Source: Fibrobacteria bacterium
GTDB lineage: Bacteria; Fibrobacterota; Fibrobacteria; UBA11236
DNA length: 64,000 bases
NCBI GenBank assembly: GCA_043732185.1
Contig: JAYTHY010000006.1
Span: 32,001-96,000, forward strand
Reading direction: 5' to 3'
This document shows, piece by piece, positions 10,332-21,659 of this stretch. Position numbers and translations under genes: made by a program. Each line of letters begins with the position of its first letter. Within the stretch, counting starts at the first letter, position 1. Under the pieces are notes generated by a model. That model was not told where the DNA came from. It saw only the letters and a list, made by a program, of their open reading frames with translations, and did not search any database.

Positions 10332-11696
10332 CTAGCCGGCCACGAACATGGATTCCACCAACAGATCCGGCACTTTAACCGAAGAGAAAGAATCCGAATA
10401 CTCTCGGGACAGCCCCCGGATGGCCAGGAGCAAGTCAAAAAAATTGGAGTTCAAAGTCAACTTGTCCACAGGTTTGATGCGCTTTCCCTGTTCGTACCAA
10501 AACCCTTGCGCGCCTATCGAGATTTCTCCGGAAATGGCAGAGCAGCCCGAACCACCATCCAGCTTGGTGACTAGCAAGCACTCAGGATAAGCGGAAAGCA
10601 AATCATTTAAATCTTCATCGCCTTTGGCTACTATATAATTTGAAAATCCAGTGCCGGCCTTTCCGGAATAACCACGTGAGCCATTACCCGTGGGCCTGCA
10701 ACCCGCCTTTTTTGCCGACTCCAAATTATAGAGATAGGTTTGGAGGATACCGTCCTTGACGATTTCCAGCGCCGAAGTCACCACGCCTTCGCCATCAAAA
10801 AGATGCGAACCGGGCGCCCCGGGAATATGCGGATTGCAAGTGATATTAAGTTTGGGAACCGCAATGGCCTGACCTACTTTTCCCGCAAGCCTGCTTTGGC
10901 CTTTCTGCACCGCATCGGCAAAGAAAGGAGAGCCGAACATGGACAAAATGGAACCGCTCACCCGATTGGAAAAAACCACCGGATAACGACCACTGGGAAT
11001 GGTTTCCGCACCCAAAAGCTCCACGGCCCGTTCCACGGCCTTGCCTGCCATGAAGGTCGCATTGAAGTCGAAGCTGCGCCCACCATTTGAATAGACGCCC
11101 ATCTTTTTGTTCTCGCCCTCTTTTGCCACCACGCCGATGCCGGCGCTCACTACATTGGACCGCGAAGAAAAAACGACACCTTTGGAATTCCGCACCATTG
11201 ACATTCCGGAAGAACGACTGGCACCAAGATAAGGAATATTATCGATACGCTTGTCAGCATCCCGTGCAAGCGATTCCAGCTCAAGCCCCAGGGCTTTCAT
11301 ACGGTCGAGACCAATATCTTCAAGCGCAGGATTGAATGATTTTAAATCGATGTCCGGTAAAGGTTCCGGATCCGGTAAATCCATATCCACCGCATCAGTA
11401 ATCAACGTATGACTCATGGCGTCCTTGACCGTCTGCCTAATCGCCTCTTTGGACATCTTTTCCGTAAAGGCGAATCCAGGACTTCGATTCTTGAACAGCC
11501 GGATGCCAATCCCTCTGGAGTTGGAGATTTCCGTACTTTTAACCTGACCTTCGAAAAGCTCTAAACCCATGCTTTCCGATTCCCCGACTACGGCATCAAA
11601 TTGCTCAGCCCCTTGCCGAGTCGCTTCGCTGCACATAAAATCAATGGCATCGATGGGTTTCAAGGACTCACCACCATCCATGGTCGGATTAGCCAT
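10332..11696 (-). CDS. pmbA: TldE/PmbA family protein
   Basis: GIGIRL, FDGEGV, GILQTYLYN, SGEIS.G..GF; no HEXXXH; TGATG overlap with tldD. Confidence 0.9.
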   Translation of the reverse strand: MANPTMDGGESLKPIDAIDFMCSEATRQGAEQFDAVVGESESMGLELFEGQVKSTEISNSRGIGIRLFKNRSPGFAFTEKMSKEAIRQTVKDAMSHTLITDAVDMDLPDPEPLPDIDLKSFNPALEDIGLDRMKALGLELESLARDADKRIDNIPYLGASRSSGMSMVRNSKGVVFSSRSNVVSAGIGVVAKEGENKKMGVYSNGGRSFDFNATFMAGKAVERAVELLGAETIPSGRYPVVFSNRVSGSILSMFGSPFFADAVQKGQSRLAGKVGQAIAVPKLNITCNPHIPGAPGSHLFDGEGVVTSALEIVKDGILQTYLYNLESAKKAGCRPTGNGSRGYSGKAGTGFSNYIVAKGDEDLNDLLSAYPECLLVTKLDGGSGCSAISGEISIGAQGFWYEQGKRIKPVDKLTLNSNFFDLLLAIRGLSREYSDSFSSVKVPDLLVESMFVAG

Positions 11697-13081
11697 CAGC
11701 GTCCGCCTACCAGGATATTGTCCACTTTGAGAGTCGGTTGGCCAACCATGACGGGAATGGAACCGGAAGCGGCCCCGCACATCCCTGCAGCCATTTCCAG
11801 ATCGTCGCCGACCATGGAAATGAGCGGCAGTATTTCCGGTCCCTTGCCGAGCAAAGTTGCTCCACGCACCGGTTCCATGATTTTTCCACCGCGAATCACA
11901 TAGGCTTCTTCCACCGAAAAATTGAATTCCCCGGTGGCCGGATTAACCGAGCCGCCGCCCATTTTTTTGGCGTACAAACCGTTCTCGATTCCGCCTATCA
12001 TGCTCGCAAGCGAAGAGGTCCCTCTATCGATGTAGGTATTGCGCATTCGAGATACTGGCGCGTATTGATAGGATTCCCGGCGCGAACTTCCAGTGATGCC
12101 TACCCCCGTTTCCTGCGCGCCAACCCGGTCGGACATGTAGCTCTGAAGAATACCGTCTTTGATCAGCACGGTTTTCTGCACCGCATTGCCCTCATCATCC
12201 ACGTTCAAGGATCCCCAGGCGTTCTGAATCGTTCCATCGTCGATAGCCGTTACCGCGGAATGGGCGATTTTTTCCCCGACTTTGCCCGCAAAGGGTGTGG
12301 CCTTGCGTCTCACTGCTTCCGTTTCCAGCAAATGCCCGCATGCTTCATGGAAGATCACCCCGCCGAAGCCGTTGCCCATAACCACCGGCATCTTCCCGCC
12401 CTTTACGTAACCGGATGACAGCATCAAGATGGCGCGCTCAGAGGCCTGCTTGGCAAAATGGGCGATGTCCAGGCTTTCAAAAAATTCGAATCCGCGCATG
12501 GTGCCCGGTGACTCGCTAGCCACAAAAATTTCCCCACCGGATTCCGCCGTGACATTGACCGTAAACCGGCAACGCGTGCGCGTGTCCTCCGTCCAAAGCC
12601 CTTCGCTATTGCAGATGAGCACATGCGAAACCACGTCTCCCGCACGTGAACTCACTTGGACGATTTTATCCGAATAACTTCTCGCCACCTGATCGGCGAG
12701 TTTGATGAGGTCCAGTTTTCTTTCTTGTCCGATTTCCCTGGGATCCTTGGTGATTTTATGGCGATTTTCAAATACCTTGCCGACCAGTTTTACCGTAGGC
12801 TCAGAGCTATGGTTGACGGCTATCCCTCGGCTCATAGCCAGATTGTCGATCAGCTTTATAATGTGGTTCTCTTCATCATTGCTGGAATGCGCATACAAGA
12901 CTTCCGTGCCATATACCAGGCGAATACCAAGCCCGTAATCGGTGCCTGCTGTCGCCGATTCCACTTTTCGGTCCCGGAAGGATACCGACGCGTTACGGGT
13001 CTCTTCTTGAAAAATTTCGACGAAGTCGGCTTTCCGATCCAAACCGGCTTGTAGTATCCGTTCCGCCTTAATTTTATCCAT
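11696..13081 (-). CDS. tldD: TldD metalloprotease
   Basis: FHEACGHLLE, DDEG, RMRNTY and a C-terminal GMCG...SIPV..GQP. Confidence 0.93.
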   Translation of the reverse strand: MDKIKAERILQAGLDRKADFVEIFQEETRNASVSFRDRKVESATAGTDYGLGIRLVYGTEVLYAHSSNDEENHIIKLIDNLAMSRGIAVNHSSEPTVKLVGKVFENRHKITKDPREIGQERKLDLIKLADQVARSYSDKIVQVSSRAGDVVSHVLICNSEGLWTEDTRTRCRFTVNVTAESGGEIFVASESPGTMRGFEFFESLDIAHFAKQASERAILMLSSGYVKGGKMPVVMGNGFGGVIFHEACGHLLETEAVRRKATPFAGKVGEKIAHSAVTAIDDGTIQNAWGSLNVDDEGNAVQKTVLIKDGILQSYMSDRVGAQETGVGITGSSRRESYQYAPVSRMRNTYIDRGTSSLASMIGGIENGLYAKKMGGGSVNPATGEFNFSVEEAYVIRGGKIMEPVRGATLLGKGPEILPLISMVGDDLEMAAGMCGAASGSIPVMVGQPTLKVDNILVGGR

Positions 13082-13136: not shown

Positions 13137-13622
13137 TTACTTGTCGCCGGGAAAGAGTGCGTCGAATTGGTCCGAGATCTGGTTTCCAGTCGTCCCTTCC
13201 GGCGGAAAATCTTCGACTTCATTGTTCTTTATGTCCATCAGCACTTCGTTCAGTTTTGCTTTTGCTTTTCCAGCAATCAGCTTGACTAATCCCAAATTGG
13301 TTCGATCATCGAAAATAAGCACCATGATCACATCTTCATCGACAAGAGAAATGTGGATATTCTCTTTTTCGCCTTGGTGGAACATCATCGAAAACTCAGT
13401 CTCACCGATCAAAGTCGCAATGGCCTTGGTCGAAGCGAAACTGCCGGCAGCTAGAGCCGCCAAAGTTGTTGCGTTTATTTTAGGGCTGAAGCCGACTTGG
13501 GAAATAAGATTCCCGTCTTTATTGATAAGGAGCACATACGAGGATGCCGACTCGGTAATAAGATGCGACAGGATTTTGTTGATCCGATCGATATCCTCTT
13601 TGTACAGGACAAAATCGCCCAC
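13137..13622 (-). CDS. mglB: MglB-type roadblock/LC7 protein (putative GAP for MglA)
   Basis: LLINKDG, TLAALAAGSFAST..IA.LIGE.EF..FHQGE, FDDRTNLGLVKL, and an acidic C-terminal helix ISDQFDALF; GTG start. Confidence 0.9.
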   Translation of the reverse strand: MGDFVLYKEDIDRINKILSHLITESASSYVLLINKDGNLISQVGFSPKINATTLAALAAGSFASTKAIATLIGETEFSMMFHQGEKENIHISLVDEDVIMVLIFDDRTNLGLVKLIAGKAKAKLNEVLMDIKNNEVEDFPPEGTTGNQISDQFDALFPGDK

Positions 13623-13624
13623 GC

Positions 13625-15268
13625 CTATTTTTCTTTTTTGAAAAGCCCGTCGAAGAATCCTTTTTTCTTCTCATTGGGATGCGGTAGCTTTTTGGTTTTG
13701 AAGGAATCGTTTTTGGCCATGTCCTCATAGGTGGTCACAATACCGCTGCGATCCACCTCACCAGGCACACCGCCACCACCGGAAGGCGTTGGCCCAGCCG
13801 TGGAAGGAGTAGGCGGCGTCGCTATCGGAAGGGGAGGAGGAGTCGGACTTGAAACCCGTTCACCAAAGGGTGTGGTCGGGAACGCGGCTCCAGGTTGTCC
13901 AGGAAATACTGGCATGGAGCTGGGCATAGGGCTTGGAGAGCCGCCAAATGGGTTCCCGGGGTTGGGGCTAGATTGTCCACCAAAATTTCCCTGGCCGAAA
14001 TTCGGCTGGGCGGGTGGCGCCATTCCCGGCGCCGGAGGTCGATTGGGAGCATTGCCAAAGCCAGGCATACCGGGTGGTAAACCTTGGTCTCCTGGTCGCC
14101 CACCCAAATTAAAAGCCGGTGGAGGCTGGCCAAAGCTTTGAATGCCAGGGCTGGTACCAATGGGATCTAAGGGTTTGGGTGTCAAGCTTGGCCCACCCGC
14201 CGACGGTGTGCCTGGAAATGCTGATTTTGGGGTTTGAAAGCCCTGTAGAAAAGGTGAAACTGGAATGCCAGAGGGTGGCGGTGTGAATCCACTTGGCGGT
14301 GGCGTAAAACCTGCAGGCCCATCCGATTTTGGAGGAAAGGCAGGTGGCGTGCCTGGGCTTTTACTGGCAAAAGGATTGTTGGCGGCAAAAGGATTATTAG
14401 CAGCGAAAGGATTCGCGCTCGGCGCGGCAAGCGGGTTGGCTTGTGGCGCACTGGTTGGGGGCCGAAAGCCGGGATCCGGTGGTCGGGATACTGGGTTCTG
14501 TGGCCCTGGAAAGGAAGGCCGAGCGGCGGGTCCACCAAAGCCAGGAAAAGGTTGGGGCGCGCTTATGGGAGGACGCATAGCAGGCGCCGCGGGCGAAGCT
14601 TGTTGTGTGGGCTTGGCAGCCGAGGCGCCTAACGAGGCCGCATCACCTGGACGAGCGGTGCGTCGAGTCCCTTGAAAGCCCGCGTACTTGGCATTGAACT
14701 TATCGATTACGTATTTTCCAATTCCCTTTAAAGTTGTAAAAACACCCACACCTGTTGCAGCAACTGCTTCATAATGAGGCAGTTTTAATTTATTCAGCAA
14801 TTCATTGAGCTGATCCACGGAATACACATTGGGTAAATCGCGTTTGTTGTACTGAAGCACCAAGGGAATGTTTTCGATGGAATGTCCATATTCCCTTAGG
14901 TTCTCTTGCAGGTTGGCAAAACTTTCCAGGTTTTCCTGAAGCTTATCCACTTGTGAGTCCACTACAAAAACCACGCCATCCACCCCGCGTAGCACAAGTT
15001 TTCGGGTGGCATTGTAATAGACCTGGCCTGGCACGGTATACAATTGGAACTTGGTCGAAAAGCCCTTAATGGATCCCAAATCGAGGGGAAGAAAATCGAA
15101 AAATAGAGTCCGGTCCGTTTCCGTGGCCAAGGACACCATTTCACTTTTATCCTTGTCCGGTATTTTTCGATGAATAATCTGTAAATTAGTGGTTTTTCCG
15201 CTCAGCCCAGGACCGTAATAGACGATCTTGCAGCTGATTTCCCGGGTTGCGTAATTAATAGATGCCAC
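13625..15268 (-). CDS. mglA: MglA family small GTPase with ~350-aa Pro/Gly-rich C-terminal extension
   Basis: KIVYYGPGLSGKTTNL (G1), DRTLFFDFLP (G2), YTVPGQ (G3), NKRD (G4), EAVA (G5); GTG start after GAGGAA. Confidence 0.93.
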   Translation of the reverse strand: MASINYATREISCKIVYYGPGLSGKTTNLQIIHRKIPDKDKSEMVSLATETDRTLFFDFLPLDLGSIKGFSTKFQLYTVPGQVYYNATRKLVLRGVDGVVFVVDSQVDKLQENLESFANLQENLREYGHSIENIPLVLQYNKRDLPNVYSVDQLNELLNKLKLPHYEAVAATGVGVFTTLKGIGKYVIDKFNAKYAGFQGTRRTARPGDAASLGASAAKPTQQASPAAPAMRPPISAPQPFPGFGGPAARPSFPGPQNPVSRPPDPGFRPPTSAPQANPLAAPSANPFAANNPFAANNPFASKSPGTPPAFPPKSDGPAGFTPPPSGFTPPPSGIPVSPFLQGFQTPKSAFPGTPSAGGPSLTPKPLDPIGTSPGIQSFGQPPPAFNLGGRPGDQGLPPGMPGFGNAPNRPPAPGMAPPAQPNFGQGNFGGQSSPNPGNPFGGSPSPMPSSMPVFPGQPGAAFPTTPFGERVSSPTPPPLPIATPPTPSTAGPTPSGGGGVPGEVDRSGIVTTYEDMAKNDSFKTKKLPHPNEKKKGFFDGLFKKEK

Positions 15269-15282
15269 AGGATTTTCCTCGG

Positions 15283-15624
15283 TTACTTAATTAAGGGGCT
15301 GACTTGAGCGATTTCCACCCGGATCAAGCCGGTATTGGCCTGGCTGTCCGCAAGCACAACCAGATAGCCTAATTCTACAACCTGGACAAAGAACTTGCCA
15401 TCGCTTGCTTCAATCATTGTCTGCATCAGTTGACCCGCCTGTGCATTTGCAACAATTTTATTGGCCACCTGCTGTACCGAAACGATAAGGGCGCTGATGA
15501 ATTCTGAAGGAACCGGAGTCCTGAAGTGGGACACAATCTCAATCCCGTCCGGACTGACGATACTCGAACCTTTGACGCCCTTGATCTGGTTTATTCTCTC
15601 CAATATAGTAAGCATTCCATTCAA
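15283..15624 (-). CDS. Roadblock/LC7 domain protein (MglC-like); the start may be the ATG at 15615
   Basis: GVKGSSIVSPDGI, G.L.Q.MIEA..G, YLVVLA...ANTGLIR pattern. Confidence 0.8.
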   Translation of the reverse strand: MNGMLTILERINQIKGVKGSSIVSPDGIEIVSHFRTPVPSEFISALIVSVQQVANKIVANAQAGQLMQTMIEASDGKFFVQVVELGYLVVLADSQANTGLIRVEIAQVSPLIK

Positions 15625-16049
15625 CTCCGTATATAGCCACGTTCATGTAAGAGGCGGGCAATGGCAAGGGCCCCGCGGTCTATCCGAAATTTGAATAAAT
15701 CATAACTTCCCCGGGTTCCGGCGACGACGAGAAAGAATAAGTCCAATTGTCCCAAATTGACTATCAAGTGAAAATGATGTTCATCAAACGACACAGAATG
15801 TTCCAATGGGCCCATCCCCAGCATTCTGTATTGAGCCAACGATTCCTGAAAACTGGCTAGAAAATAAGGGGATTCGATAAAATGGTTTTGCTGGCTCTCC
15901 TCTCCCCAGGCCACGACCAACCCTTCGCGACTGTAGAGAATGGCTCCGGTAATACCCTTCACCAGACTTAAGTATCCAAGGCATCGGTCCAAATCCTGTG
16001 ACTCAACGAGCTTGTTGATGTCAGTGGGTGCCAGATCGAGTTTACTCAT
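15621..16049 (-). CDS. Divergent roadblock/LC7-like protein
   Basis: VKGITGAILYSREGLVV...LGMGPLEH...FLVV pattern; overlaps both neighbours. Confidence 0.65.
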   Translation of the reverse strand: MSKLDLAPTDINKLVESQDLDRCLGYLSLVKGITGAILYSREGLVVAWGEESQQNHFIESPYFLASFQESLAQYRMLGMGPLEHSVSFDEHHFHLIVNLGQLDLFFLVVAGTRGSYDLFKFRIDRGALAIARLLHERGYIRS

Positions 16050-16920
16050 GAGTCAAATTACCTACTGCGTGAGGCCCCATATTGGCGCGCACTTTGGCCG
16101 AAGCGGCCTGTTTTTGAAAAATATTTTCCGCTCGTACCATGGTCAGCAGGGATTGGTTGATGTTTCCAGTTACAAGCTCGAGACATTCTGCGCCCATATG
16201 CAGAGAGGTCACCGTCAAATTCTGGAAGGAAAAACAGATCTTGTGAATTTCTCCACCCTCCAACGCATCACACGTATTGGCAATGGCACCCGGAAGAATT
16301 TGTGGCAGTAAGTTGACCAAGGAGGCGAGATTCGAATTTCGGCTGGTGGACTTGTATCGGTTTTGCGCCTGATTTCCAAGAACCAATGCCTGCGTATTGT
16401 CATCCATCACTAAACTTTGATAGATACCAAAATCTCCCTCACCGAGCTCGAAGGCCGCCATATTAGGTGTGGAAATTGCCGGAGGAACCGGAAGAATGCT
16501 GGCTGCCGCCGAAAAAGAGGCCACTGGAGTGACTGCACCCAATGAGTTCGCGGGAACTTCTGATGGCCGTCCTTGCCATGCCATCCATTCTAAATAGATA
16601 CTCGATTCGAGCAGTGACAAAGCCACCAAATCGTTGGGATGCCGGTGCAGGTGCGAAACCAGCTTCTGTTTCACCTGTTGGTGTTCACCGGTTTCAATCC
16701 CGATTTGGGTCTGTAAGTAAAAAACCATATCCTTGAATCGCGTAGTTTGCTTGCCTTCCAAACTTTGCAAAACATGATTGGCCAAATCGTATTTCTTGCG
16801 CCGAATAAGCAGACATGCATACGCTAGAGTACTCGAACTTTGAATAAAACTCTGGCATATCACATCCCCCATGAGGACGCTTTCGGCGGTTTTAACTTCG
16901 TGCTGGGTTGCCGTGGACAT
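16042..16920 (-). CDS. TPR + linker + degenerate roadblock-like domain protein
   Basis: N-terminal TPR-like helices (HPNDLVALSLL), an Ala/Pro linker, and a C-terminal alpha/beta pattern (DALEGGEIHKICFSF). Confidence 0.55.
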   Translation of the reverse strand: MSTATQHEVKTAESVLMGDVICQSFIQSSSTLAYACLLIRRKKYDLANHVLQSLEGKQTTRFKDMVFYLQTQIGIETGEHQQVKQKLVSHLHRHPNDLVALSLLESSIYLEWMAWQGRPSEVPANSLGAVTPVASFSAAASILPVPPAISTPNMAAFELGEGDFGIYQSLVMDDNTQALVLGNQAQNRYKSTSRNSNLASLVNLLPQILPGAIANTCDALEGGEIHKICFSFQNLTVTSLHMGAECLELVTGNINQSLLTMVRAENIFQKQAASAKVRANMGPHAVGNLTHE

Positions 16921-16928
16921 TCAAATTC

Positions 16929-18020
16929 TCATTTAAGTTGGTAAGTTTTTTTGGTGATTTTCTTATACACCGGTTTATTTCCAATCGGGCCGCTGACCTC
17001 GTTTGGAACCAATGCCCCCTCTTCAACCAGCACTTTTAGAGTCGCAGGTAGATTGTTTTGCCTATCCGCATGATCCACCAGTAGCACTTCAATATTATCG
17101 TACGCAAAATGATTCGCTATTTTCATTGCATACCCTCCCTGTGAGCTCTGCTTGGAAGTCGATGAAAGGTCTAGGCTGAGGAACCAATAGGAAACGAACC
17201 GCAAGACCAGGGCCAGCAGCAAAAACATGAAAGCCGTACCCAGTACCATGGCCGTTTTCCTATCCTTTTCATTTTGGGGATCGGCAGCGGCAGGCAAATC
17301 GATTTCCTCGACCGAATCCGCCACTGGGGCGACAAACCCACCCTCCCATAAATTTACAAGGCATTCGGAGAGTCGGAAAGAGCCAAAGGGAACTTGTTTG
17401 GCGATTTGTGCCACGCTCTTCCGTCCATCAACCAGCCCCAACACCAAATAGTCCCAGCCTAATTGGTCGCCGTCATAGGTTTTTTCCATGAGGTTGAAAA
17501 CGACTTTGGGATCGGGTATGGACTCCTTAAGTCGCGGCCACTCATCTATGCGCCGCATTCCCTCCATACAGGCAAATTCTGTGGAAATATTCAGTTGCAT
17601 GGAAATGGAGGATTGCGCCTTTAGTCCGGTCCCAAAATCATATTGCCCTTTGAGCCATCCAAACAGTTCACAAACCATGTCCTCGGAAATGATCTGTAGC
17701 CATTCTTTCTTGTCCTCATCGGTCAAATGACCTTTGGCGGCCAAGGTTGTCAGCAAGGGACGATTCATTTCTCTGGACATGGACTCCAGTTCATGCATCT
17801 CATCCTTTTCCACCTTGCCGGAGGCGATCAGCATTTCTTTGATAATATCCTCGGGCATCTCGCCATTCACTCTAACTCCATTGACATTGCCAGCGGAGAT
17901 GAAAATTTCAGCCTTTTCTTTCCCGTTAACCAAATTGAGCACACCGGACTTGCGCTGTTGCAACAATAGTTGCAGGACATCGGCCAGAGAGAAGTCTTTT
18001 AAATCCCCGGAAAGCTTCAT
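16929..18020 (-). CDS. DUF4388 (PATAN-like) domain membrane protein
   Basis: LSGDLKDFSLADVLQLL..QRKSGVL, MEGMRRIDEW, LVDGRKSV; one TM near the C-terminus; ATGA overlap. Confidence 0.85.
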   Translation of the reverse strand: MKLSGDLKDFSLADVLQLLLQQRKSGVLNLVNGKEKAEIFISAGNVNGVRVNGEMPEDIIKEMLIASGKVEKDEMHELESMSREMNRPLLTTLAAKGHLTDEDKKEWLQIISEDMVCELFGWLKGQYDFGTGLKAQSSISMQLNISTEFACMEGMRRIDEWPRLKESIPDPKVVFNLMEKTYDGDQLGWDYLVLGLVDGRKSVAQIAKQVPFGSFRLSECLVNLWEGGFVAPVADSVEEIDLPAAADPQNEKDRKTAMVLGTAFMFLLLALVLRFVSYWFLSLDLSSTSKQSSQGGYAMKIANHFAYDNIEVLLVDHADRQNNLPATLKVLVEEGALVPNEVSGPIGNKPVYKKITKKTYQLK

Positions 18021-20236
18021 CGAAAAGTCTCCTTTTCGACGGCAGCGGAAGCAGCCATCAGTTCACCGACATTGACGGGAGTGCGGAGGAGCTTGATATT
18101 GAACAAAAGATAAAATAGCGCGATAGGTAGCCAAGGCAACCAGTGGAAAGGGCCAATCACAAAGCTGGGATACTCCATGAGGAGGTGGTTCACTTGCCAA
18201 AGGCCGCCCATCAGAAATCCTGTTGCCAGAATCCAAACAAACCGCCCCGTGCCCAAACCTAAAAACAAAAGTCCGGTCCCTGGCCAAAGCGAATTAAGCA
18301 CGGCTCCGATACGCAAGCGTTGTACGGTCGAGCGCATGCGCATACGTTTTACCATTTCCATTTTCACCCGGTTATCATGAATTCCGGAAACTGTTTTAAA
18401 ACATGTGTGACAATGCACGCCTTTACGACAAAGACGGCACATGACCCGGTTACAAATTTTGCAGTCGAACAAATCCTTCCCATGGCTATGTTGAGAATGA
18501 TGTCGAAAGCGGAAATGCAGCAACAAGGCGACGATACCGACCATGGCGAGCAGCCAACCACCCATAATTTCATAAATTCCGGTACTGACCCACACACCTA
18601 GAAAATCCAATCCAATCAAAGAATTCCACGCTGCGGTCCAAGCCAACCGATTTCTCAACATGGGATCCATCGCCTTACGTGTGGCCGGATACTCAGGAAA
18701 ATATTCGTCGTTGTCCTTCAAAAACTGGTTGACCCATTGTGGGTCCACCTCGGCTGCTCGATCCAGGTATTTTTTATGCCGAGTCGAATTGTTGGAATAC
18801 AATTCCGCCTGACTGGAGTTGAACCATGTTTCCACCATGTTGGGCGCAATTCTACGGGCTTCTGTGAAAGCGGTGGACGCGCCGGTGTAATCAAATCCCA
18901 CCATAGCCAGATTCCCATTATTGAGAAGCACATACGGATTGGAAGGTTCAATTTGAGACGCCAAGCGGCCAAATTCTCCTGCCTTAATATATTCTCCTTG
19001 CTTTTTATAGGTCAAGGAATAGGCCAGGCTGCGATAAAGACTGTCTTCCTGGGTTTTGGCTTTGAAGGCTTCCATTCGCGTGATTAGGGGTGCTTCATAT
19101 CCGCGATTATAGGCGCGGTGATAAAGATTGACTCCCAGGGTATCATCCAGGTGACGCACCATGGTTTGCTCCCACATAAAGAGGAATGGGATCAAGGCCA
19201 GACCCGTCATCAGGACTTTTAGAAAAGTTTTTTCTTGATTGGTCACATGTTTCCAGAGCAGCATGGTAAAGGCCAGGCCCAATGCCACATACCCCAATCC
19301 ACCTATCATCAGGCTTAAAGGAAGGAGGGCCAAAGCGAAATATCGGATCCAGATTTCCACTTGATTCGGAAGCCGCTCGACCCATAAATGGGTGATGCGC
19401 GAAAAGTATTTTCCGAAGAGAACCAGCAAGGCAACTGCGCCAAAAAAGGCCAGGCCCATGCGAAAGGCACGAGACATATTGACTATGAAAAGAGATTGGC
19501 TGTCGTAATATTGCAGCAATCTGGCAGCCTCGGTGAGCCGCGTCCAAGCGGCGCTCAAATCCCAATTGAGCGGGGGCTTTTCCCGGAACTCCATCTCCAT
19601 CAATATAAAAGGAACCCAAGGACAGAGCGGATCGAGCTTTCCAGCAAACTCGGCAGCCTGTCTCGCGACCAAATATAAGCCCTGGCCCATCGCCTCACGG
19701 GCACGGAGCAATTCCAGCTTCGCGAGTTCGGGAACCTTGATATAGCCTTTTTCCAGCATGTTGCGCTGAACTTCCAGTTGTAATAAATGCGCTCTTTGGT
19801 ACAGCCCGTTTTGGGTAAGAATCCTAGCCATTTCATAGTTAACGGCAATGTTACCTTTGGCCAATTGGGTTGCCATGAGGAGTTCCGTCTCGCCATTGCC
19901 AGCCTTGGTTTTGTCCAAAGCGAGACCCACGCTGAAATTGGCCCATAAATCGGCAAAGGTCGGCGCCTCCGGATTGGTCACGGCTGCAGGATGTGCTTCA
20001 CGCACATGCTGGATAAGGACCGGGAGCTCTGTCGCACTGATGGAATTGGCGAAAAGTTTTATGCTGGGGGGGAAACGTTCTTGAAAATCCCAACGCGAAA
20101 ACACGGTTTCCCGCAGCGATTCCAATACTTGAACTTGGGCCATAAGAGGAGCCGCCAGGCAAAGCAGCAGCCTGATACATCTAATAGGGTTGATCAAATC
20201 ACTCCCAATCCAGGGTGAAACAAGACAAGCCTCCAA
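18017..20236 (-). CDS. Multi-pass membrane protein with TPR repeats and a 6-Cys cluster
   Basis: Signal-like N-terminus; TPRs (EPSNPYVLLNNGNL, APNMVETWFN); several TM blocks; CKICNRVMCRLCRKGVHCHTC. Confidence 0.75.
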   Translation of the reverse strand: MEACLVSPWIGSDLINPIRCIRLLLCLAAPLMAQVQVLESLRETVFSRWDFQERFPPSIKLFANSISATELPVLIQHVREAHPAAVTNPEAPTFADLWANFSVGLALDKTKAGNGETELLMATQLAKGNIAVNYEMARILTQNGLYQRAHLLQLEVQRNMLEKGYIKVPELAKLELLRAREAMGQGLYLVARQAAEFAGKLDPLCPWVPFILMEMEFREKPPLNWDLSAAWTRLTEAARLLQYYDSQSLFIVNMSRAFRMGLAFFGAVALLVLFGKYFSRITHLWVERLPNQVEIWIRYFALALLPLSLMIGGLGYVALGLAFTMLLWKHVTNQEKTFLKVLMTGLALIPFLFMWEQTMVRHLDDTLGVNLYHRAYNRGYEAPLITRMEAFKAKTQEDSLYRSLAYSLTYKKQGEYIKAGEFGRLASQIEPSNPYVLLNNGNLAMVGFDYTGASTAFTEARRIAPNMVETWFNSSQAELYSNNSTRHKKYLDRAAEVDPQWVNQFLKDNDEYFPEYPATRKAMDPMLRNRLAWTAAWNSLIGLDFLGVWVSTGIYEIMGGWLLAMVGIVALLLHFRFRHHSQHSHGKDLFDCKICNRVMCRLCRKGVHCHTCFKTVSGIHDNRVKMEMVKRMRMRSTVQRLRIGAVLNSLWPGTGLLFLGLGTGRFVWILATGFLMGGLWQVNHLLMEYPSFVIGPFHWLPWLPIALFYLLFNIKLLRTPVNVGELMAASAAVEKETFR

Positions 20237-20255: not shown

Positions 20256-21659
20256 TCAGGATTGCGCTTTTAAACCGTATCGTTCAATCTTCCTATAAAG
20301 CGTGGAAATATCCAACCCCAGAATCTTGGCTACGGTCGGTTTATGCCACTGATTTTCGGTAAGCACCCAAAAAATATAAGCCTTTTCGATGTCGTTGAGG
20401 GTCGGTGATACGCCGACCCCAAAGGCGCGTTCCCCAGCTGGCATGGAACCGGAACCTTCCATTTTCCCTGTCCGTGGCAAGGTGTGGCCCTGATCCAGTT
20501 CAGTCACTGTTGTGCTGGGCAAGTCCAGCTCCAACGTTTCAATAGATTCACTGGTACTGAAGGCAATAGCCCTCTCTACCGCATTTTCCAATTGTCGTAC
20601 ATTTCCAGGCCAGGCATAGGCTTGAATTTGCTCTAGAGCGGTTGCGGTGAAAGACTTACGGCCTCCGCTTTTTCTTTGTAAAAAATAGTTTGCGAGCAGA
20701 ATGGAATCTTCACTCCGCTCAGCCAAAGCCGGTGTATTGATACGCAGCACATTGAGCCGATAGTACAGATCTTCCCGAAATTGTCCCTGCGCTACTGCAT
20801 CCTCAAGGTTCACATTGGTCGCGGCTAAGATACGGACGTCGATTCGAGAGGAAGCTGTGCCGCCAACCTGAGTGATTTCCCGCTCCTGGATGACCCTCAA
20901 AAGCTTGACCTGAGTGCGGAGCGGCATTTCCCCGATCTCGTCCAGGAACACGGAGCCACCGTTGGCAACGGCGAATAAGCCATCCTTGTCGGCATGTGCC
21001 GAAGTAAACGATCCTTTCACATGACCGAATAATTCCGACTCCAGCAAACTCTCGGAAAGCGAAGAGCAATTGACCACTACAAATGGTTTTAAGGAACGCA
21101 AGGATTTTTGATGGATGAGCTTTGCCACCAGTTCTTTGCCGGTCCCGCTCTCCCCTGTAATGAGCACTGTGCTTTCCGAGGAGGCGATGGCGTTGATCCG
21201 GTCCTTAAGTTGGAGAAAAATCGGAGATTGACCGATTAACTCAACGCCTTGCCGTCGAATGAAGTCCTTCAGCTCACGGTTTTCAGTTTCCAGTGTCCGC
21301 GTTGCCACGGCCTTCTCGACCACTTTTCCCAAAAAAACCATTTCGAAAGGTTTGGAAATAAAATCAAATGCTCCCAGCTTTACAGCCTCAACGGCCTTTT
21401 CAACTGTCCCATAGGCAGTCATGACAACCACAGGAACCCGCGGGAAGCGGTCGAGCAGCGCCTTGACTAGGGTGAGTCCTGAACCTTGACCTAAAGCCAA
21501 ATCAACCATGGCCAATAAGGGCTCAGGGCCATCCAAGAGCTTGAGTCCGGCTTCAACGCTATGGGCGGAAACCGTCGCATACCCTTTTTTTTCGAAAAAC
21601 ACTTCTAGCAGCGCACAAAGCGATACTTCGTCATCAACGATGAGTACTTTAGGTTTCAT
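20256..21659 (-). CDS. NtrC/PilR-family sigma54-dependent response regulator (REC-AAA+-HTH)
   Basis: VDDE...VDL...KPF; GESGTGKE; ESELFGH; FLDEIGE; FREDLYYRLNV; WPGNVRQL; Fis-type HTH. Confidence 0.92.
   Translation of the reverse strand: MKPKVLIVDDEVSLCALLEVFFEKKGYATVSAHSVEAGLKLLDGPEPLLAMVDLALGQGSGLTLVKALLDRFPRVPVVVMTAYGTVEKAVEAVKLGAFDFISKPFEMVFLGKVVEKAVATRTLETENRELKDFIRRQGVELIGQSPIFLQLKDRINAIASSESTVLITGESGTGKELVAKLIHQKSLRSLKPFVVVNCSSLSESLLESELFGHVKGSFTSAHADKDGLFAVANGGSVFLDEIGEMPLRTQVKLLRVIQEREITQVGGTASSRIDVRILAATNVNLEDAVAQGQFREDLYYRLNVLRINTPALAERSEDSILLANYFLQRKSGGRKSFTATALEQIQAYAWPGNVRQLENAVERAIAFSTSESIETLELDLPSTTVTELDQGHTLPRTGKMEGSGSMPAGERAFGVGVSPTLNDIEKAYIFWVLTENQWHKPTVAKILGLDISTLYRKIERYGLKAQS

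Follow-up and report, generated by a model that had tools for sequence, protein, structure and literature searches.

A long disordered tail with a conserved, MinD-like end on an MglA GTPase of Fibrobacterota

Descriptions of prokaryotic Ras-like GTPases usually present them as soluble, with partners as their only route to the membrane or the cell poles. A 64,000-nucleotide stretch of DNA from a Fibrobacteria bacterium (assembly GCA_043732185.1, contig JAYTHY010000006.1, positions 32,001 to 96,000; this whole stretch is called the window below) encodes an MglA GTPase that runs on far past its G domain and ends in a peptide resembling the end of Escherichia coli MinD. What does such a tail do, and could it bring the GTPase to the membrane by itself? 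The initial annotation had proposed that the protein tethers itself to the membrane by a long flexible leash. We analyzed the protein, its orthologs and its gene neighbourhood, and we consider a reversible membrane tether on a disordered leash to be the reading that the evidence moderately favours.

The MglA G domain and its tail

The first part of the protein is an ordinary MglA G domain. It contains the P-loop GPGLSGKT, the motif DRTLFFD with an intrinsic Arg finger (R53) adjoining T54, the G3 motif TVPGQ and NKRD at residues 141-144, and D52, R53 and T54 as well as T78, V79, P80, G81 and Q82 were each invariant in a 43-sequence alignment (A1). Comparison with solved structures gave Myxococcus xanthus MglA (5ymx) as the top match (E 2.4e-78, 265.9 bits, residues 1-191 gap-free) and Thermus thermophilus MglA (3t12) at E 3.3e-72, and after the MglA structures the next matches were Arl and Rab at E 7e-06 or worse; Pfam gave weak matches to Arf, Gtr1_RagA and Ras. 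AlphaFold2, run with an alignment, predicted this part as folded, with a block predicted local distance difference test (pLDDT) score of up to 93. The intact G domain of about 195 residues, with its Arg in DRTLFFD (R53) and its Gln in PGQ (Q82), was therefore confirmed, and its extent was set at residues 1-197. An Arg beside the G2 Thr and TVPGQ instead of DxxGQ as G3 are given as the marks of group-1 MglA by Wuichet and Sogaard-Andersen (2014, PMC4316618). Both were found in the window protein, together with the G-domain similarity and a coupled mglB gene, and the solved proteins of M. xanthus and T. thermophilus (5ymx, 6h17, 3t12) have the same gap-free G domain, Arg finger, TVPGQ, NKRD and adjacent mglB. 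The window protein is thus a group-1 MglA by every catalytic and contextual criterion tested, and it departs only in size. Group-1 proteins are single domains of about 190-200 residues (195-203 in the solved ones), whereas here 350 disordered residues with a conserved end module are added beyond the G domain. A ribosome-binding site, GAGGAAAA, lies 7 nt 5' of the GTG start, and this gene is the sole MglA homologue in its 4.46-Mb genome bin, which is rated 100% complete.

The tail past residue 197 (350 residues) consists mainly of a few kinds of residue (P 24%, G 13%, A 11%, S 9%, F 7.7%), and residues 200-547 were predicted by AlphaFold2 to lack secondary structure; block pLDDT was 42-58 there (42-55 in the linker, residues 198-500). 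NPF motifs start at residues 286, 292, 298 and 439, the first three of them in tandem within ANPFAANNPFAANNPFA, and GFTPPPS occurs twice; all these features of the P/G/A/S/F-rich region were exactly as initially annotated. The two GFTPPPS units have unlike codons at 7/7 positions but an identical peptide, and the NPF units have also diverged synonymously (TTC/TTT, GCT/GCC, AAT/AAC). From this divergence it had been argued that the tail is retained at the protein level, and purifying selection was indeed found when the ratio of nonsynonymous to synonymous substitution rates (dN/dS) was calculated against L002, the closest ortholog with unsaturated dS (about 0.27). The ratio was 0.008 in the G domain, compared with 0.243 in the linker and 0.239 over the last 47 codons. 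In six distant pairs, the G domain was 86-97% identical and the last 47 residues 62-83%, against 32-40% for the linker. The comparison shows the C-terminal module as an island of conservation that follows a rapidly evolving spacer.

NPF is known in eukaryotes as a docking motif, but its use here as an EH-type docking site was unsupported. The number of copies was 1-9 within the family of the window genome (the window family) and 0 or 1 in the sampled orthologs of other families, and the EH domain (PF12763) was not found in the window's own 100%-complete genome by a model that was equally silent in 14 prokaryotic control genomes.

The conserved end and its distribution

The last 47 residues contain three sub-motifs (Table 1). 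The first is the hydrophobic/acidic patch SGIVTTYED, for which similarly placed patches occur in other lineages (MYFTSVNTD, AFLTPEEL, TIISWSAGK). The second is the polybasic-proline motif FKTKKLPHP, whose P529 is nearly invariant (alignment A1) and which has related forms elsewhere (PTRRMPLGP, KRPVNPK, LRPYIPK). The third is the Lys-flanked peptide that ends the protein. The last 15 residues, EKKKGFFDGLFKKEK (in longer form ...SGIVTTYEDMAKNDSFKTKKLPHPNEKKKGFFDGLFKKEK), are encoded at 13628-13672 next to the stop codon at 13625-13627, just where they had been placed, and they resemble the E. coli MinD end, EEKKGFLKRLFGG. The MinD sequence had also been quoted correctly, as minD of E. coli K-12 (NC_000913) translates to ...EEEKKGFLKRLFGG. 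The likeness consists of a location at the extreme C-terminus and a Lys-flanked pattern G-F-[FL]-x-x-L-F; the end KKRGFFKRLFGIK of a relative labelled Candidatus Acidoferrum is nearly the E. coli MinD motif, and a Zixibacteria-labelled relative ends in GFFLWRWLSKLFK.

On a helical wheel, F538, F539, L542 and F543 fall at 300, 40, 340 and 80 degrees, which means that the large hydrophobic residues, spaced i, i+1, i+4 and i+5, occupy a 140-degree arc, and the net charge of the last 30 residues is +6. Cys is absent from the tail of the window MglA, and it is also absent from the last 6 residues in all 77 complete orthologs, so a CAAX-type lipid anchor is excluded. The pattern G[FW][FLMW]xx[LFIM]F within the last 22 residues was found in 6 of the 16126 stop-to-stop frames of at least 80 aa in the 4.46-Mb genome, and MglA was the only long one among them (the other five had 82-143 aa). 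No ParA/MinD-like, FtsA-like or other protein carried this C-terminal motif among the frames of that length, and no MinD was above the model cut-off in the genome (best 70.7 vs 212.9 bits). When the last 60 residues (488-547) were compared with 5.8 billion proteins of 300-958 aa, 20 matches were obtained from 37 candidates, and all 20 were orthologs of the MglA tail, each with small-GTPase Pfam domains.

Persistence of the terminal motif while protein length varies had been named as a check of the proposal, and this is what the alignment showed. The end K-K-K-G-[FL]-F-[DG]-G-[LF]-F was present in 15/15 non-redundant complete orthologs of the window family, whose lengths ranged from 506 to 719 aa, and it was kept despite many synonymous changes (for example 8 Leu-position codons and 5 Gly-position codons in the 15 orthologs). 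Dual coding, in which the ribosome-binding site of mglB would keep the terminal Lys/Glu codons, was rejected as the main cause, because the spacing and the sequence between the mglA stop and the mglB start vary among orthologs while the peptide is kept.

A query with the MglA G domain gave a match of E 1e-30 or better in 245 of 296 Fibrobacterota genomes (151/172 of the high-quality ones), and the open frames were mostly 300-850 aa among the matches listed. A pattern scan gave 17 related loci, 16 from metagenome-assembled genomes labelled Fibrobacteria, Fibrobacteres or Fibrobacterota and one from an "uncultured bacterium". The gene was then cut out at 88 loci, including 40 hand-picked to span families, which yielded 77 complete sequences, 65 of them non-redundant. 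All 65, including some from complete chromosomes, had tails, of 91 to 632 aa. Orthologs therefore do not stop near residue 200, and the view that canonical MglA is tailless fits the solved proteins but not Fibrobacterota, where the tail is the rule. A seemingly short MglA of 199 aa (G083) proved to be merely cut by the contig end, and the remaining short frames were at contig ends or were second copies. About 18 Fibrobacterota genomes (mostly f13, also f6 and f11) had two MglA matches each, and the second copies included frames of 214 aa (G051) and 195 aa (G040), so short paralogues may coexist with the tailed form.

Long MglA homologues are not new as such. A "Group II MglA2" of 225-327 aa, with a C-terminal region of unknown function, was listed with a Fibrobacter succinogenes protein of 313 aa (Fremgen et al. 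2010, PMC3000849), and our 313-aa ortholog L076 from a complete 3.84-Mb genome matches this size. The group II proteins combine an MglA-like G domain with an extension, as here, and where that paper deals with them it gives sizes and no tail anatomy. The 313-aa form differs from the window protein in that it ends in an acidic run and VLRPYKPKDK, which is not amphipathic, and the window tail is three times longer. A full-text search, with subscription journals and the supplements of PMC4316618 and PMC3169522 outside its scope, found no description of a membrane-targeting or disordered MglA tail; on the parts of the literature covered, the nearest prior trace of the tailed MglA is the size table of 2010 (PMC3000849).

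The ends of the tails are of several kinds. Basic amphipathic ends were found in 44 of the 65 non-redundant complete orthologs (39 by regular expression and 5 by eye), in families f1, f3, f11 and f13-f18, which means 9 of the 13 families with complete orthologs, and in f12 the start of such an end is visible at a contig cut. They fall into the subtypes GFFDGLF, FLSKFFN, GFFxRLFG, GFFLWRWL and RFIKYLF. The other ends were DSYPTRRMPLGPGQ in 10 sequences, all from f8 (L042-L051), an acidic run plus ELRPY[IVK]PK in 9 sequences from f5 (L072, L073) and the Fibrobacter-like f6 (L074-L079, L091), and acidic ends in 2 sequences from f2. The net charge of the last 30 residues was +2 to +9 in 15 representative amphipathic ends and -3 to +1 in four other ends. 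In f8 the tails finish with a sharply conserved AFLTPEELxRLQGxDSYPTRRMPLGPGQ, and in f5 and f6 the acidic run is followed by ELRPY[IVK]PK(K). Outside this sample, basic amphipathic ends were present in 56/109 relatives of 113-361 aa, and in the ESM Atlas long MglA-like proteins formed clusters that were most frequent in Fibrobacterota, Zixiibacteriota and Myxococcota.

A G-domain tree was built by FastTree with 160 rows. Changes were counted over 144 typed rows, since the ends of the other 16 were untyped or truncated. On this tree the division into amphipathic and other ends needs 1 change, compared with at least 31 in 200 label shuffles, which suggests that the amphipathic end is old and was retained while its sequence drifted into at least five subtypes. 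Read with the taxon codes, this unrooted and weakly supported tree suggests an old amphipathic end that some lineages later exchanged for others.

A proposed membrane tether and its alternatives

We infer that the tailed MglA acts as a reversible membrane tether. This reading is supported indirectly by the likeness to MinD, the i, i+1, i+4, i+5 pattern with its charge, the character kept in at least five subtypes, the rarity of the motif and the lack of Cys. The G domain would work as in Myxococcus and Thermus, with its own Arg finger and Gln and with the GTPase-activating protein MglB encoded 2 nt downstream. The last 47 residues would be a three-part address label, made of the hydrophobic patch, the polybasic-proline stretch and the Lys-flanked peptide KKKGFFDGLFKK. 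This label would rest against the anionic inner surface of the cytoplasmic membrane, where its basic residues would bind lipid head groups. The membrane would induce a helix, and F538, F539, L542 and F543 would insert as one side of it, in the manner of the MinD membrane-targeting sequence. Held by the leash of about 300 aa, the G domain would stay within some tens of nanometres of the membrane or closer, beside the predicted membrane proteins of the same operon, the 739-aa polytopic protein and the single-pass PATAN protein. The polybasic stretch would add to the attachment, and clustering via the evenly spaced Phe of the linker might do so too.

The end of MglA would thus be a putative targeting sequence that resembles the MinD type in function, not a member of a homology family. 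In E. coli MinD (270 aa) the motif ends an ATPase without a long tail, whereas in the window it stands on a leash of about 300 aa behind a presumably monomeric GTPase. The MinD sequence is a C-terminal amphipathic helix of which a single copy is too weak, so that dimerization gives the avidity, and effective membrane binding needs this ATP-driven dimerization, as stated in PMC8155659. Since one MinD-type helix binds weakly, the attachment of MglA is probably reversible, and a monomeric GTPase with one such peptide would bind only transiently unless clustered. It is this need for clustering that makes the evenly Phe-spaced linker of interest, and clustering is put forward here only as a hypothesis.

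Several observations weigh against the tether. The hydrophobic moment (muH) of the best 11-mer of the end peptide was 0.50, only third among 337 tail windows, and it is ordinary for the composition, since 3023 of 10000 shuffles of the last 15 residues attain it. So the hydrophobic moment is not separable from that of own-composition shuffles, and it was not used as an argument; the proposed helical-wheel check upheld a one-sided hydrophobic face, but its moment was reached by 30% of shuffles. AlphaFold2 gave no helix at the end of MglA, with pLDDT of 57-58 for the last residues, and the peptide is short and contains two Gly. Amphipathic targeting helices commonly fold only on lipid. Four sampled families (f6, f5, f8 and f2) end in ELRPYxPK, PTRRMPLGP or acidic peptides, so the tail can work without an amphipathic end, and the phylum-wide design is better called a leash plus address label that is not always a membrane anchor. 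In addition, the tree was made from a highly conserved domain of 197 residues and 61 of its 148 inner branches are unsupported, the ortholog sample was hand-chosen, and kin are not independent. The proposal of a self-tether on a long leash is therefore sustained as far as the end is kept in orthologs, recurs in other families and phyla and is under selection, and it is weakened by the missing AlphaFold2 helix, the unremarkable moment and the four families without such an end. We still regard the tether as somewhat probable, and in most sampled lineages the address looks like a direct lipid anchor.

The strongest alternative is that the conserved end docks on a protein partner and binds no lipid. 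Such a design is known from FtsZ, whose GTPase core carries a disordered linker of variable length and, at the C-terminus, a conserved peptide for docking on protein anchors. MglA has in common with FtsZ a core, a linker variable in length and sequence and a short conserved end, although the GTPase folds are unrelated and the MglA end looks like a direct lipid binder rather than a protein ligand. Candidate partners are the PATAN protein, the 739-aa membrane protein, a Roadblock dimer and a pilus or motility component. In favour of docking, lineages without the amphipathic end still keep a conserved terminal peptide behind their disordered tails (the f8 and ELRPY[IVK]PK ends above), the module has three conserved sub-motifs, which is beyond the needs of a plain lipid anchor, and dedicated partner genes are encoded alongside. 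Docking also agrees with a basic-proline motif, [KR]x0-1PxxP, that recurs before the end, in the last 32 residues of 38/65 orthologs vs 99/529 (19%) of other tail windows; this enrichment arises in Pro-rich tails, and the window family has a related PxP form (KKLPxP) instead. However, between subtypes the residues change and the amphipathic and basic character persists, a behaviour common in lipid-binding helices but rare in a peptide made to fit one pocket, and the end closely resembles the MinD membrane-targeting sequence. Nor does the kind of end follow the presence of the PATAN and 739-aa genes: both occur in f8 and f2, which lack an amphipathic end, and f14 has such an end with neither gene nearby. 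A complex prediction of the G domain and two MglB against the last 47 residues (alignments A1 and A2) scored 0.02 against a mark of 0.32 and favours neither side. Docking without lipid binding is thus a serious but rather unlikely explanation.

A more doubtful alternative makes the linker the main functional part, as a cohesive domain like the phenylalanine-glycine (FG) repeats that clusters MglA, with the terminal peptide only nucleating or orienting the clusters. Even spacing of aromatic residues tunes the phase behaviour of low-complexity domains, and FG nucleoporins have this look. In the window linker an aromatic residue occurs about every 10.8 residues, more evenly than in 98.9% of shuffles. 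The period was 10.4-13.0 residues in 15/15 orthologs of the window family despite linkers of 259-472 aa, and in 13/15 the spacing was evener than in shuffles (fraction at or below 0.011). In this family Phe stands next to G or P (most often as GGF 62, NPF 52, PGF 45, SPF 33), and its share is steady at 6.7-8.6% while Gly varies from 8.6 to 24%. The likeness to FG nucleoporins and prion-like domains is one of composition only, namely a Phe with G or P beside it at intervals of about 11 residues, set in a matrix of P, G, S, A, N and Q. Against a cohesive linker stand the low identity and the dN/dS of 0.24 in the linker. The even spacing was found in 0/10 sequences of f8 and in 5/24 of other classes, so it is not general to tailed MglA; it is confined to the window family and a few other lineages.

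A combination of the membrane tether and the cohesive linker, in which weak MinD-like anchors and an FG-repeat-like linker with a Phe about every 11 residues together form a self-organizing membrane hub, a condensate or brush at the membrane, for example at a pole, appears equally improbable to us. If it were true, the hub would concentrate the switch and gate the access of MglB and effectors, as a bacterial counterpart of the nanoclustering of Ras through its hypervariable region, and it would stand in for the polar landmarks of the RomR/RomX type in Myxococcus.

The least tenable explanation, that the tail is an assembly or annotation artefact or a functionless neutral low-complexity expansion, could be suspected from a GC content of 0.58-0.60 in the tail vs 0.44-0.47 in the flanks and from spurious open reading frames that overlap the tail in other frames, but it is refuted, as far as sequence data can go, by the tail in all 65 complete orthologs from many independent assemblies, the in-frame indels, the dN/dS of 0.24 and the conserved C-terminal island. 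For the coverage check, which had been called for, Logan contigs from other samples and studies were used, each covering a part and none the whole stretch. A 1188-base contig of another sample runs from inside mglB, covering its start, through the terminal peptide and most of the tail to 14413, and the tail indels in independent metagenome contigs were all net multiples of 3 (+3, +3, +6, +6, -3, -3, -75), so this check came out in favour of a real tail. At 15188-15274, which encodes the N-terminus and the P-loop, the summed word depth was 30-88 vs 3-9 beside it, and short loose-ended contigs there suggest that mglA genes of other organisms share this highly conserved piece.

Gene neighbourhood and wider meaning

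The features of the mglA locus are collected in Table 1.

Table 1 Features of mglA and its neighbours in the window (positions counted from the first base of the window)
Feature	Position	Strand	Basis or remark
mglA open reading frame	13625..15268	-	one open frame, 547 aa, GTG start
MglA G domain, group-1 type, residues 1-197	14678..15268	-	structure matches, motifs, AlphaFold2 fold
Disordered linker, residues 198-500	13769..14677	-	AlphaFold2, composition, dN/dS, aromatic spacing
ANPFAANNPFAANNPFA, three tandem NPF units, residues 285-301	14366..14416	-	units differ by synonymous changes
GFTPPPS x2, residues 320-333 (starts 320 and 327)	14270..14311	-	repeat units, codon comparison
Fourth NPF, residues 439-441	13946..13954	-	motif position
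Conserved C-terminal module, residues 501-547 (47 aa)	13628..13768	-	identity island vs linker
SGIVTTYED, hydrophobic/acidic patch, residues 508-516	13721..13747	-	kept across the window family
FKTKKLPHP, polybasic-proline motif, residues 523-531	13676..13702	-	family comparison
KKKGFFDGLFKKEK, Lys-flanked amphipathic peptide, putative membrane-targeting sequence, residues 534-547	13628..13669	-	MinD likeness, helical wheel
mglB, 161 aa, Roadblock/LC7	13137..13622	-	Robl_LC7 E 1e-11; start 2 nt past mglA stop
Roadblock/LC7 protein, 113 aa, directly upstream of mglA	15283..15624	-	E 1.2e-08
Roadblock-like protein, 142 aa	15621..16049	-	MAPKK1_Int (LAMTOR3/MP1 family) E 7.1e-07, 29.5 bits, cut-off 25
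292-aa protein, no family match, conserved in the window family	16042..16920	-	Pfam search, synteny
DUF4388 (PATAN) protein	16929..18020	-	E 1.8e-24
739-aa predicted polytopic membrane protein, no Pfam family	18017..20236	-	hydropathy peaks 2.0-2.2
Sigma-54-dependent response regulator, head of gene row	20256..21659	-	Response_reg, Sigma54_activat, HTH_8

The gene row begins with the sigma-54 regulator and continues with the 739-aa, PATAN and 292-aa proteins, the two Roadblock-family proteins, mglA and mglB, and within the reach of the contigs it was retained at each of the 17 close loci. The product of mglB, which follows mglA in most loci, scored 87.4 bits with the MglB model NF052242, under the equivalog cut-off of 200. 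It has an acidic C-terminal extension of about 30 aa (13137-13230, minus strand) that ends in DQFDALFPGDK, and LFPG is kept in the 17-ortholog consensus. The 113-aa Roadblock/LC7 protein had 81-99% identity across the 17 loci. Together with MglB and the 142-aa protein it makes three Roadblock-type proteins around one GTPase, an arrangement reminiscent of Ragulator-type heterodimers. The PATAN protein has one predicted membrane-spanning segment at about 257-280 (Kyte-Doolittle 19-residue maximum 2.4 at 258), so the PATAN domain would sit at the membrane, and the 739-aa protein has a number of highly hydrophobic segments and a Cys-rich stretch CxxC...CxxC...CHxC (CKIC...CRLC...CHTC). Since both proteins are predicted to be membrane-bound, the GTPase module is encoded with predicted membrane proteins. 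In 12 further genomes from other families, the 739-aa and PATAN genes and mglA occurred together in 8, with mglB too in 7 of these 8, and the 739-aa and PATAN core was not found beside mglA in f5, f6 and f14. A TldD/PmbA metallopeptidase gene pair lies downstream of mglB (10332-13081, minus strand), and both genes were present, at varied distance, in 8/17 close loci. Four ATPases of the PilT family also scored above the model cut-off in the genome of the window, and two of their genes are neighbours on contig C136.

The hypervariable region of eukaryotic Ras and Rho GTPases consists of a polybasic stretch and a lipid anchor and is far shorter than 350 aa. The tailed MglA is like them in its small G domain, its flexible fast-evolving tail and a basic end that would hold the switch on the membrane, and it is unlike them in that the tail of about 350 aa has no Cys or CAAX box and would use an amphipathic peptide instead of a lipid. 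An address that is built into MglA extends across the phylum, as the gene was matched in 245/296 genomes and every complete sampled copy is tailed, and relatives labelled Zixibacteria and Candidatus Acidoferrum share the design. If the anchor works, the principle of joining a G domain through a flexible hypervariable tail to a basic-hydrophobic membrane anchor would not be a eukaryotic invention, and Fibrobacterota would have a lipid-free bacterial form of it. These proteins also make a natural series in which the leash length (tails of 91 to 632 aa) and the end chemistry (three kinds or more) of a spatial GTPase switch vary.

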